Source: Octopus vulgaris
Taxonomy: Eukaryota
Assembly (NCBI GenBank): GCA_951406725.2
Contig: OX597818.1
Location: forward strand, 20,460,001-20,524,000
Reading direction: 5' to 3'
DNA length: 64,000 nt
A model generated the notes under the pieces. The model did not search any database. It had not been told where the DNA came from and saw only the letters and a program-made list of their open reading frames with translations. The translations under genes were made by a program, and so were the position numbers. The first letter of the stretch is position 1. Each line of letters begins with the position of its first letter. Of this stretch, positions 9,626-54,667 are shown in pieces.

Positions 9626-9712
9626 CTACATCCGTGTGTATGTTGTGTATATATATAAGAAATTAAAAAAGGAAAATACGCACACTTACATAGTTTTAAT
9701 ATAATTTTTAAT

Positions 9713-9747
9713 ATATCGACCGGTTTCGCTATCGCTATTCATGATAT
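9713..9747 (-). ncRNA. Minimal type I hammerhead ribozyme motif, A3:U8 variant
   Basis: Reverse strand reads AUAUC-AUGAAUA-GC(GAUA)GC-GAAA-CCGG-UC/GAUAU. Confidence 0.7.
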
Positions 9748-9897
9748 TATGTTTTACTTATTTGAATATATATTTTTTCTTAAGAAGAAATTTGGTCCAT
9801 GTTGTGTGTGATGGAATTCACGAGTGAATTTCATCACACACAACATGGACCAAATTTCTTCTTTAGAAAAAATATATATTCAAATAAGTAAAACATA

Positions 9898-9932
9898 ATA
9901 TCATGAATAGCGATAGCGAAACCGGTCGATAT
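9898..9932 (+). ncRNA. Minimal type I hammerhead ribozyme motif, A3:U8 variant
   Basis: Helix I ATATC/GATAT, core ATGAATA, stem II GC-GATA-GC, GAAA, palindromic ACCGGT, UC cleavage site. Confidence 0.7.
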
Positions 9933-10208
9933 ATTAAAAATTATATTAAAACTATGTAAGCGTGCATATTTTCCTTTTTTAATTTCTTATATACATTATA
10001 ACTCACCACGTGGGGATAATCGAAATTCCTCTTTTCTGTTATTATATATATATATATATATATATATATATATATATATATATATATATATATGTATGTA
10101 TGTATGTATGTATGTATATATATATATATATATATATATATATATATAATATATATATATGTATATGTATATGTATATGTATATGTATATGTATATATAT
10201 ATATGTAT

Positions 10209-10899
10209 CAGTGGCAACTCCGGCTCTCGGGCTGTTCGGGCTTAGCCCGTGTATAAATTTAGTAAAGTGAACGTGTAGATGCAAGCTAATCAAAATTCCG
10301 CGAACACTGACTTAAAGTATGTAATTGTAGTCAATAACTCGGGCTCCGTTTATTGAGCCTGGTCGCAGTTCAGTTATTTTCGTTCAGAGTCTGGCGGTCG
10401 TCTTAGAGGTCGACATCGTTCACACAGAAGTTACAACCCGAGTTGTTATCAATAACTGAAAAAATTTAATTTTTTCTTGAAACAATAAATTTCTATAGAA
10501 ATTAGAATTTAAATTCCAATCTATAAAAAGTTGCCGTTCTACAATATTCTTAAAGGAACGAAAAATTTTCCCGCAACTCGGGCTAATATGAACGAACCTG
10601 GTTTATGTAAAAGTCTAATTGGTATCTCTTGTCAAGAGTACAGGCGACAGTCAGATCGCTGATGTTTGTTGTGCACTCCACTGTCGTTATTTGATTGCTA
10701 TTCTGCGCGTCTGCGTGTAAAGATCAGTTGTGTTTTGCAGGGTTGCTTTATTTTTACCCTTAACTTAGAAACAGAGGAAGACATAGTGCTAGATATATAA
10801 AATAAGGCATTTGGGGCTAGAAATATTGCAGAAAAACGGGAAATTCTTCGAGCAGGTATGTGTCTTATGTGAAATCTATGATGAGCCCGAGTAACGCTG
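10209..10899. mobile_element. Non-autonomous DNA transposon / MITE-like element
   Basis: Imperfect TIRs CAGTGGCAACTCCGGCTC / GAGCCCGAGTAACGCTG, with the internal motif CTCGGGCT repeated. No clear TSD. Confidence 0.5.
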
Positions 10900-10993
10900 A
10901 TGACCTAGAGATTATTATTATTATTATTATTATTATTATTATTATTATTATTATTATTATTATTATTATTATTATTATTATTATAATTATTAT

Positions 10994-11390
10994 GGTGGCG
11001 AACTGGCAGAATGGGTAGCACGCCGGGCAAAATGCTTAACGTTATTTCGTCGAGTTCAAATTCCGCCCAGGTCGACTTTGCCTTTCATCCTTTCGGGGTC
11101 GATTAAATAAGTACCAGTTACGCACTAGGGTCGATATAATCGACTTAATCCGTTTGTCTGTCCTTGTTTGTCCTCTCTGTGTTTAGCCCCTTGTGAGTAG
11201 TAAAGAAATAGGTATTTCATCCATCCTCATGTTCTGAGTTCGACTTTGCCTTTCATCCTTTTAGTGTCGATAAATTAAGCACCAGCGAAACACTTGGGTC
11301 GATGTAATCGACTAGTCCCTTCCCTTCAAATTTCAAGCTTTGTGCCTATAGTAGAACGGATTGCTGCCCTTGTGGCAAAATTTGAAACTA
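10994..11390 (+). mobile_element. tRNA-derived SINE (Nin/Deu-domain-like) followed by a partial second copy
   Basis: A-box-like TGGCAGAATGG, B-box GAGTTCAAATTCC, core GCCTTTCATCCTTTCGGGGTCGAT..AAGTACCAG. Confidence 0.85.
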
Positions 11391-52092: not shown

Positions 52093-52128
52093 CAGCTGGA
52101 AAAGTCTCAATGACTGAAACCGGTACTG
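52093..52128 (+). ncRNA. Degenerate minimal hammerhead-like motif
   Basis: CAG-CTGGAAA-AGTC(TCAAT)GACT-GAAA-CCGG-TA-CTG. The core has A6G and a 3:8 mismatch. Confidence 0.4.
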
Positions 52129-52816
52129 AAATGTTTTTTATAAAATTATTTTGGCATTTTCTATCTTGACTTTTTTTCCCATATGTATATATAAGCGCAT
52201 TGTGATCAGCGATGTGCAGCAACATCTGATAGCCTGGTCGATCACGGTGATATATATATATATATATATATATATATATATATATATATATATATATACA
52301 CATACATACATACACACACTCACACACACTGGTGATTTTCGGAATGTTTTTTTAATGTGTAATTCGTGTATATTCACCTGATGAACACGGTTTTTTCGCA
52401 TGACGTAATATCTCTATTCATCAATAAAAAAAATCTCCTTGGAAGCAGCTGTAATGAATGAACCACTATGCCTCTGTTGTTATTTATTTATTATTCAACT
52501 TATTCAGAACTTGCTGGACCTGAAGTCTATAAAGCGAATTACAATTGATGAAGTATATGTTCCTAAATACAGCCTTAAAACTCATAATATACTCAGTCGA
52601 GTACACTTAATTGTATATACAGATGGAATAACTGTCTGCATATTGGTATGTAAGTAATTGTTCCTCTGATTTCGTAGTATACACGATTACATTTTTTTTC
52701 TTGTCCTGACCCATGTTTTATCATTTAAGTACTTGATTTACTTGAATCGTGAACTTATATGTATATATATATATATATATATATATATATATATATATAT
52801 ATATATATATATAATA

Positions 52817-52997
52817 GCTCGTTAGCCACCTCACACATTTTTTCTCTCTTTGTTTGTTTCTGTGTTCCTTTCTTTGGAAGAGCGTAGGCTCGAAACGTAA
52901 ACGACATTTTCAATTCCCGAGCGTTATACTAATACATATGTTTGCTTTCTACACCACCTGCCTTCGTCTTTTGCTTTTTTCGTGAATTCTTCCCCTA
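52817..52997 (+). mobile_element. Short PLE-terminal-type repeat with hammerhead-like motif (copy 3, more damaged)
   Basis: CTTT-CTTTGGA-A-GAGC(GTAG)GCTC-GAAA-CG-TA-AACG at 52868-52903. Confidence 0.65.
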
Positions 52998-53934
52998 TAT
53001 GTATATATATATATACATATATATATATATATATATATTTATATATATATATATATATATAAATATATATATATATATATATTCTTATACATACATTATT
53101 AAATAGATTTCATAGCTGTTGAAATCTATTTAATCATTCATAGAAGCATCATCGCAATTTCATACCATCCATTTCATCGCTAGTTTAGTGTAAGGTTGGT
53201 GTTGATGAAATTATGTGATTTCGCTGTGCGTTGTTTGGTTGACTTCTTTGCCAATTGTTGGTTTTAATAAAAACACAAAAATATATTTGGGGAAAAAAAA
53301 GCCAGCCTACTAATGATGCCTTAGCAACGAAATCTTAAACAAACAAGGCTTTTCATCAAGTAATTCATGAGAGCTTCGTCATTATGAAAATTTCTTTCCC
53401 CTTTCATAACATGAATATAATGAGAACGATTGTGAGGTGAGTGTCACATGCTTGGAAGCCATAATTGCGATAGGGATTTGGGAACATCTGAAAGAATACG
53501 TACAAGGGCGCATAGTTAAGGCTCTAAGACCTTCTGTATGCGCCTACACACATGTACACATGATTACATGCATACACATGGTTATATACAGATACGCGTA
53601 CATGTGTACACGCATTTCCATGCATGTAGGTACGCATATATACGCGCACACGTCCATATGCATACATATGCAAACGCATATACGTACATACGCATATCCA
53701 GAAATATACACACACGTCTATACAATTACAGGTCCCCGTGCATGCATACACATACGCGTAAATGCATATCCATACATACATACACACACGCATACGCACA
53801 CATACTTACACACACACATATATATATATATATATATATATATATATATATATATATATATATATATATATATATATATATATATATATATATATATATA
53901 TATATATATATATACCTATATATATATATATAAA

Positions 53935-54140
53935 GTTAATTCAAACAAGAAAGCACAAAAAAAAACACAACAACGCGAGGACGTGGAAAAAAAAAGTATT
54001 ATTGGACGCTCAGGAAAGAAGGAAAGAAGGATGGTTTAACGTTTCGAGTTGAGCTCTTCGTCGGAAACATGGGAGAAGGAAAGATCCAGAGAAGGGAAGA
54101 CCGAGGGAAAAAAATCGCCAACGGTACACGCGAGGTCGCA
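53935..54140 (-). mobile_element. Short PLE-terminal-type repeat with U4C hammerhead motif; a truncated relative lies at about 39105-39200
   Basis: Minus strand 54034-54068 reads GTTT-CCGACGA-A-GAG(CTCAA)CTC-GAAA-CG-TT-AAAC. Confidence 0.65.
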
Positions 54141-54167
54141 TACATATATTATATTATATTATATTTT

Positions 54168-54667
54168 ATTAAGAGCAGTACAACACGTAAATGCCTCACG
54201 CTATGAAGGATTCTTAAAGTCAAAAGTACCATAATAAATATATAGTGTATCGGCAGCGAGGGAATGCAACTTAGAAATCGCCTCTTAAAAACCGATTCAG
54301 CCGCAAATCATATGATTTCAAAGTTAGTGTACATAATTCATTTTCTAATAGTCACCGCAGGCATAATCAAGTCATAAAAATGAACACAATTCAGCATACC
54401 AGACGAACACTAAATGTATCCAAAACAGCGCATAGAAATGTTGAATTTTGTTCATTTTTATGTGTCTTGATTATGATTGCACTGACGATTAGAAAGTGGA
54501 TTATGTACACGAACTTTGAAATCATATGATTTGCGGCTGAATCGGTTTTTAAGAGGTGACTTCCAAATTGCATTCCCTCGCTGTCAGTACACTGTGTATT
54601 TATTATGGTAGTTTTGACTTTAAGAGTCTCTCACAGCATGAGGCATTTACATGTAGTAATGCCTTAA
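54168..54667. mobile_element. Palindromic element (arms about 230 bp) with a hammerhead-like motif in each arm
   Basis: Arms 54168-54397 and 54438-54667. The plus arm reads GCA-CTGACGA-TTAG-AAAGT..ACTTT-GAAA-TCATATGA-TT-TGC. Confidence 0.7.

Follow-up and report, generated by a model that had tools for sequence, protein, structure and literature searches.

Can a hammerhead ribozyme core persist as a family trait of a transposable element when the C3:G8 pair of its active site has been exchanged for another? The question is raised by 64,000 nucleotides (nt) of the Octopus vulgaris genome (assembly GCA_951406725.2, contig OX597818.1, positions 20,460,001 to 20,524,000), here termed the window, a microsatellite-rich stretch with nine 7-nt cores of hammerhead type, among them AUGAAUA (A3:U8) and GUGAACA (G3:C8). 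We consider it probable that the motifs are minimal type I hammerheads in the terminal repeats of Penelope-like elements (PLEs) and in likely non-autonomous derivatives of these, that A3:U8 and G3:C8 are inherited family states which likely stay paired through selection for the active fold, and that cleavage would be slow, taking place as dimers or with the element protein.

All nine cores listed in the initial annotation were recovered, each with its position and strand, and they sit in the layout of the type I minimal hammerhead: an open helix I, the 7-nt core, a stem II hairpin, a GAAA box and U16.1-H17, with the palindromic helix III sequences ACCGGU, AAUAUU, ACGU and AUCAUAUGAU. A descriptor composed after the motifs were known (in order, a helix I no shorter than 4 bp; a 7-nt core unconstrained at positions 3 and 8; 0–4 nt left unpaired; stem II and the GAAA box; a palindrome; a U followed by any base but G; and helix I') matched six of the nine sites, with no match in any of 30 block-wise dinucleotide shuffles or in the reversed window. 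The three misses (47476, 26781 and 31876) are decayed copies of families whose other copies pass. Because the descriptor postdated sight of the motifs, it was also run, with a looser core, over evenly spaced stretches of the genome (2.8 Gb, 227 contigs), giving 20 matches in 0.6 Mb against 2, 1 and 3 in controls, and 36 in 1.2 Mb against 5, 6, 14 and 5 in four shuffles and 6 in the reversed sequence.

The nine sites sort into six families and, because the CCGACGA and CUGUNGA families are homologous, into five lineages, fewer than the seven or more unrelated elements first proposed; the cores at 54482 and 54355 are the two arms of one insertion. The three palindromes with an outward-reading motif in each arm are real, A9 having been lost from the right arm at 41.5 kb (Table 1). 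Canonical CUGANGA letters occur in two window families only (47476 and 54482), the other four being A3:U8, G3:C8, U4C and A6U, and the 3:8 pair is Watson–Crick in all six, as it is in six more families outside the window.

Table 1. Hammerhead motifs and the insertions that carry them in the window
Feature	Positions	Strand	Basis or remark
Head-to-head pair of 5'-truncated PLE 3' ends, A3:U8 family	9651..10042	both	inverted-repeat analysis, family comparison
Identical A3:U8 motif, left arm, outward-reading	9713..9747	-	descriptor match
Minimal type I hammerhead, core AUGAAUA (A3 9903, U8 9908)	9898..9932	+	descriptor match
Decayed CUGUNGA copy (core CUGUGGA), stem II mismatch	26777..26812	+	family comparison
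Second decayed CUGUNGA copy (core CUGUGGA), helix III and helix I broken	31872..31907	+	family comparison
PLE 3' ends joined head to head, G3:C8 family, flanked by (TA)n runs	41298..41636	both	inverted arms, family comparison
Minimal hammerhead, core GUGAACA (G3 41478, C8 41473)	41435..41485	-	descriptor match
Right-arm G3:C8 copy, A9 lost (decayed), core start 41513	41506..41555	+	family comparison
Canonical CUGAUGA motif, very abundant short repeat	47471..47513	+	3-nt deletion at cleavage site relative to other copies
Third decayed CUGUNGA copy, core CUUUGGA, missing from the initial annotation	52868..52904	+	family comparison
Minimal hammerhead, core CCGACGA (C3:G8 kept, U4C fixed)	54034..54068	-	family comparison
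Inverted pair, non-coding family	54162..54675	both	tandem units elsewhere, no open reading frame found
Other arm of that pair, core GUGACUA (G.U), private double mutant	54301..54360	-	1 of 24 distinct copies
Hammerhead, canonical core CUGACGA	54477..54536	+	descriptor match

Family counts refer to distinct copies over all loci and are anchored outside the core; many of the loci were chosen by likeness to a core-bearing query. On this basis A:U is present in 36 of 37 copies of the 9903 family and G:C in 60 of 63 copies of the 41478 family. By these counts both are family states, and the idea that the two cores are one-off mutants of canonical motifs does not hold. The initial annotation had also named G.U as a third independent family variant, which we rejected: it occurs once among 24 distinct copies of the 54482/54355 family (the window arm), 20 of which are C:G. 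With N at positions 3 and 8, the 9903-family pattern has 322 exact genome matches against 0 for the control, and of the first 100 listed 99 are A3:U8 and one is G3.U8. For the G3:C8 family, 30 loci picked by sequence upstream of the core alone have GUGAACA in 26 of 33 rows (two loci overlap). In the contigs of four runs (organisms A–D) there is no alternative letter at 9903 or 9908 at a level of at least 5%, whereas stem II loop positions of the A3:U8 motif vary at 9–15% in the two deepest runs. For the G3:C8 core, contigs of four runs, likewise from organisms A–D, have no alternative letter at a level of at least 3%. Both core states are common to related organisms, yet their invariance is weak evidence of selection, because CpG decay accounts for much of the observed variation and neither core contains a CpG.

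The PLE origin that had been proposed for all the elements is supported for these two families by linkage to open reading frames (ORFs), but no PLE ORF was found for the families of 47476, 54482, 54064 and 26781/31876. Longer A3:U8 copies enter an ORF with a Pfam GIY-YIG match above cut-off, its end lying some 300 nt ahead of the core, and at locus L365 (L numbers denote fetched loci) a 635-aa ORF with reverse transcriptase (RT) and GIY-YIG domains ends about 290 nt before the motif (RVT_1, E 1.1e-6, 28.9 bits, just below the cut-off of 29.6; GIY-YIG, E 1.6e-6). The CxxC linker of this ORF is like that described for Neptune and Nematis. The G3:C8 assignment rests on the GIY-YIG part, above cut-off in an ORF 950–1000 nt upstream of the motif in five copies (L155, L157, L163, L166 and L226). 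The 3' end is common to all A3:U8 copies and lies in (TA)n, some copies having a tail and others none, whereas the point of 5' truncation differs widely among them; G3:C8 copies show the same pattern. The variable 5' truncation, inverted 5' partner, optional one-sided tail and (TA)n targets of both families are ends of PLE type, the first three forming the insertion pattern described for PLEs (PMC8557442). No full-length element with an ORF between two pseudo-long terminal repeats (pLTRs) was obtained for either family among the loci fetched; same-strand pairs at L361–L363 were rejected as separate insertions or local duplications, and L364 was rejected as a duplication.

The window copies are 5'-truncated leftovers. 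The A3:U8 arms span 9649–9821 and 9824–9996, the right one extended by a tail of about 45 nt that precedes (TA)n, and the motif at 9898..9932 has a 2-bp stem II, the palindromic helix III ACCGGU and a predicted cut after C 9927. The left arm of the G3:C8 insertion has an extra tail of about 55 nt, and its motif has an additional G after A9, a 5-bp stem II, helix III AAUAUU and a 7-bp helix I. Thirteen G3:C8 copies in 1.2 Mb of sampled genome extrapolate to roughly 30,000 genome-wide.

At 21 nt upstream of the G3:C8 core (L151–L180; truncated off the window copy) stand a branch-point-like ACTAAC, a pyrimidine tract and a CAG just before helix I. A 30-nt pattern over this region has 961 matches at no more than one mismatch, and many copies start at or near its AG. 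For Drosophila Penelope, the intron end is reported to map to helix I (PMC4209133).

Related families, sought by their endonuclease and therefore blind to the core, place both swaps beside differently paired relatives, which bears out the initial proposal of compensatory 3:8 states. The family closest to A3:U8 by protein (59–61% identity) has UUGAAAA, that is U3:A8, in 28 of the 30 copies selected by ORF. Aligned with the A3:U8 motif, its own has the same 2-bp GC stem II, GAAA and ACCGGUC. Two further families in that clade have UUGAUAA (12 of 19 copies and two of two), and a more distant one (36–38% identity; L334, L247) has CUGAAGA, so that a passage from C:G through U:A to A:U appears the simplest reading. 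In the sister family of G3:C8 (50% protein identity, support 98/100) C3:G8 is present in 30 of 30 copies, and when the two motifs are aligned by hand, stem II and helix I correspond, with paired differences. A retrozyme-like family from an unselected sample adds U3:A8 in nine of ten copies, and a group with a long stem II has the canonical core in three copies and a decayed one in a fourth.

Overall, the 3:8 positions are paired in 12 of 12 readable families, against 11 of 30 shuffle matches; C:G occurs in six, U:A in four, A:U in one and G:C in one, hence all four Watson–Crick pairs. Outside this set are L331/L333, L332 and L358, with no motif within 1.5 kb or an ambiguous core, and L348, a different GIY-YIG protein. 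Since an alignment of 11 family representatives with MAFFT lost the core register, the 3:8 tally was built from flank-anchored counts and not from alignment covariation. When position 8 is permuted, P is 3.6e-5 on the assumption of independent families, or 1/24 with the four states alone counted.

Because the families are related, only some three or four independent events underlie the 12 of 12, and this small number, with a chance pairing of 11 in 30 among shuffle matches, leaves room for the swapped cores to be neutral founder accidents, in which families expanded from copies of dead motifs that had acquired two chance-pairing mutations. Decayed copies of a canonical family do reach U3/A8 by two transitions, among the 100 matches listed, and both window families were first picked because they were paired; the U3:A8 families and the C3:G8 sister, however, came from ORFs or unselected sampling. 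Accident would also require, for each event, that both positions change on one lineage, by two transversions in two of the events, while U4, G5, A6 and GAAA stayed unchanged there and the surrounding stems remained intact, and among the 12 families none has changed at 3 alone or at 8 alone. We judge such an origin very improbable.

In the hammerhead, G12 acts as general base and the 2'-OH of nucleotide 8 as general acid (PMC6155905). Pairing with C3 holds G8 in place, and G8C costs about 10^5-fold in activity, which C3G partly restores (PMC8495972). An exchange at 3:8 that preserves pairing therefore leaves the catalytic group in place: given pairing with nucleotide 3, nucleotide 8 would serve as general acid through its 2'-OH whatever its base. 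In a transposing tandem element (pLTR-ORF-pLTR), two motifs would pair through their palindromic helix III, and a lineage that lost the 3:8 pair would regain it by a second change. Minimal PLE hammerheads are reported not to cleave as monomers and to cleave weakly as dimers (PMC4209133), and the anole PLE hammerhead needs protein, its G3:C8 double mutant being partly active and single changes inactive (Frangieh et al. 2024, PMC11167929). In transposing elements, cleavage would be slow, helped by dimer formation or by protein, and under selection of little strength. Such weakness is probable, since neither the passage from U:A to A:U nor that from C:G to G:C avoids a mismatch step and other families have fixed U4C, A6U or A9C.

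Folding is in part consistent with such dimers, the hammerhead being the predicted minimum-energy dimer for the A3:U8 motif and for its U3:A8 relative (-13.3 kcal/mol each). The palindromes themselves were rejected as active cis dimers, their arms being on opposite strands and their spans folding into single hairpins (-246.5, -200.8 and -299.0 kcal/mol). Because the two motifs lie on opposite strands, read-through RNA of the window copies would form a long hairpin and no cut.

Several results weigh against a history of selected, compensated cleavage. Four of six motifs folded, including G3:C8 (-25.4 versus -30.6 kcal/mol) and those with a canonical core, have a predicted minimum other than the hammerhead dimer. 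The U:A/A:U clade has support of 86/100, with its inner branching order unsettled, and MAFFT failed to register the G3:C8 and C3:G8 sister motifs, which match by hand alignment only. With about three or four independent events, the true significance of the pairing lies between 3.6e-5 and 1/24. Across the genome, a loose pattern that demanded a CG helix III and a core with neither C3 nor G8 found 459 matches against 454 in the control, which is chance level and also favours founder accident; it merely pointed to one U3:A8 family. No shared upstream ORF was found for the 47476, 54482, 54064 and 26781/31876 families in 18, 27, 17 and 27 anchored rows, a small sample. In the anole PLE, catalytic hammerhead mutants insert normally in vitro, and RNA-seq is reported to have shown no ends at the site (PMC11167929). 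Finally, single core changes do spread in abundant families: U4C is fixed in 13 of 15 copies of the 54064 family and U6 in the CUGUNGA family, while the C3:G8 sister (L271–L300), whose helix III is non-palindromic, has A9C in all 30 of its ORF-selected copies; none of these changes is compensated. Selection for cleavage, which we infer, is weakened by these amplified families. The C3:G8 sister is very young (150 scored matches at 96–100% identity; frames open for as much as 1312 aa), and four older-looking copies of it retain A9.

The uncompensated changes would be expected if the hammerhead fold were kept as a binding structure for a PLE protein or a host factor, cleavage being minor or absent, the 3:8 pair closing the core turn and the catalytic bases drifting. 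Helix I covaries between the CCGACGA and CUGUNGA families despite their altered cores, two copies of a related U3:A8 family have GCAA instead of GAAA, and the anole PLE hammerhead, for which catalysis is dispensable for insertion in vitro, cleaves only with protein (PMC11167929). However, G5, the GAAA box, U16.1 and a non-G at 17 are retained in nearly all families read, a retention partly built in because the descriptors demand G5, A9 and GAAA; a natural U4C viroid variant is functional in vivo (PMC3088659); and the 3:8 pair is part of the active-site arrangement (PMC8495972). On balance we regard a mainly binding role as unlikely and retain selection for the active fold. The GCAA copies, L346 and L352, both belong to one U3:A8 family and show it where the GAAA box is expected.

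The swapped letters could also be read as codons, with A3 (AUG) or G3 (GUG) kept as a start codon in the upstream pLTR and position 8 following to keep the fold. The A3:U8 core does open an 18-codon frame, near the end of which most other copies have a GTAAGT donor-like site from which the window right arm differs by one base (region 9903–9962), and the anole PLE ORF starts inside its hammerhead (PMC11167929). In the U3:A8 relative, however, the 5' pLTR with its hammerhead is followed by an ORF1 that begins about 220 nt downstream, at the pLTR end, and then by the RT–endonuclease (RT-EN) frame (L369, L368), and the loci fetched include no A3:U8 copy in which ORF1 follows directly on a 5' pLTR; we think a coding constraint extremely improbable. 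Copies L367 and L368 of the U3:A8 relative have overlapping frames, an upstream one of more than 400 codons and an 811-codon RT-EN frame, which suggests frameshifting.

For the remaining window families no ORF of this kind was found in the rows sampled, and they are likely non-autonomous derivatives. That of 54.2–54.7 kb appears retrozyme-like: its motif at 54477..54536 has four unpaired nt before stem II and a 10-nt palindromic helix III, and elsewhere the family forms tandem units 482–484 nt apart (L128 and L146), with a similar tandem in L143. Retrozymes are described as PLE derivatives (PMC7229834; preprint 10.64898/2026.07.22.740005), and the likeness to the non-LTR (long terminal repeat) retrozymes of animals consists in non-coding tandem units, each with a single type I hammerhead. 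At 484 nt the unit exceeds the 170–400 nt reported in those two sources; the A3:U8 and G3:C8 families differ from retrozymes in being PLEs of autonomous type. Outside the window, a non-coding tandem family with a 362-nt unit (L243 8667–9406, L229, L066, L245) has U3:A8 hammerheads (UUGAAAA, UUGACAA) and is likewise retrozyme-like.

The CCGACGA and CUGUNGA families cluster together and align. The first has C:G in 14 of 15 copies and 14 BLAST copies in the 1.2 Mb sampled; the second has C:G in 23 of 25 copies, U fixed at position 6, all four bases at position 7, and 22 copies in the same sample. Their parents were not found in the families surveyed.

The 47476 family (C:G in 16 of 20 distinct copies; 24 BLAST copies in 1.2 Mb) may be a short interspersed nuclear element with a tRNA head and a PLE-type tail. 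Two copies (L192, L194) have, ahead of the hammerhead, an (AAT)n run and a head with motifs that resemble A and B boxes. ARAGORN found no tRNA in six loci with this family.

Three further inverted structures and a PLE remnant lie in the window. An inverted pair at 7104–7311 and 7833–8040 (92% complementary) has arm hairpins closed by GGCUGG/CCAGCC and followed by GAAA; they resemble stem II of the 47476 family, with no recognisable core ahead of them. Near-perfect inverted structures at 3572–4322 and 14771–17307 have arms of 226 nt (100%) and 291 nt (97%), and the descriptor found no hammerhead in either. On the minus strand, 27649–28012 holds what is left of a GIY-YIG endonuclease (tblastn E 5.6e-8), now decayed, from a PLE of another type.

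How far such motifs escape standard searches was also at issue. In eight loci carrying them, an Rfam scan returned no hammerhead at gathering score, which fits the proposal of a repertoire that is missed; canonical-core motifs were among those without a match. In the window, no hammerhead was among the 150 listed of 422 Rfam matches, those listed being microsatellite-driven miRNA matches. A squid genome paper counted 235 Rfam-type hammerheads, with no core details, and the portion of the octopus repeat annotation available to us never uses the word ribozyme.

The closest known systems are the minimal hammerheads in the pLTRs of metazoan PLEs (Cervera and De la Pena 2014, PMC4209133), which share with the octopus motifs the type I topology, a helix I of 4–7 bp, a short palindromic helix III, in most families the extra nucleotide after A9, the site behind an RT-GIY-YIG ORF, and a prevalence of truncated single or opposite-strand copies. 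That work describes U3:A8 covariation, in about 1,300 matches, in Schistosoma Cercyon PLEs, and the rows of its Fig. S3 considered here have C:G, two U:A and one U.G, with neither A3:U8 nor G3:C8 as a family state; the octopus families add the 2-bp stem II (A3:U8/U3:A8) and the fixed U4C, A6U and A9C, and the part of its alignment considered includes no cephalopod. The C3G/G8C laboratory mutant of the anole Poseidon PLE (PMC11167929) has the same G3:C8 core, and genomic copies there have an optional 3' tail; unlike that mutant, G3:C8 in the octopus is a natural family state. Natural U3:A8 covariation and U4C were described, and compensated 3:8 variants called active in vitro, by Perreault et al. 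(2011, PMC3088659), the available text of which names A6C and not A3:U8, G3:C8, A6U or A9C. Our literature search found no natural A3:U8 or G3:C8 and no core analysis in a cephalopod; Lunse et al. (2017) and Przybilski and Hammann (2007) lay outside its scope and could already report them. New here are the four pair types side by side, the ORF-anchored relatives and the uncompensated families, the hammerhead mechanism and 3:8 covariation in PLEs being already known. Because the mechanism is not new, the gain in knowledge is moderate.

What hammerheads do for PLEs is the larger matter, given their near-constant presence, their poor cleavage in vitro and their dispensability for insertion in the one reconstituted system. 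Possible, if doubtful, is that a single genome with all four 3:8 pairs (reached via mismatch intermediates) and with U4C, A6U and A9C families, all cleaving when bound by RT-EN, holds a protein-assisted, relaxed-core repertoire that standard searches miss and that would map the core positions that matter in vivo. Hammerhead descriptors should in any case leave positions 3 and 8 free but paired, as otherwise one family of roughly 30,000 copies is invisible. The swapped families are the best sequence argument here for selection on the active-site fold, and the A9C, A6U and U4C families bound the strength of that selection. The A3:U8 and G3:C8 families, standing beside differently paired relatives, are ready-made compensatory experiments, and the young A9C family is a good test of whether amplification needs catalysis.

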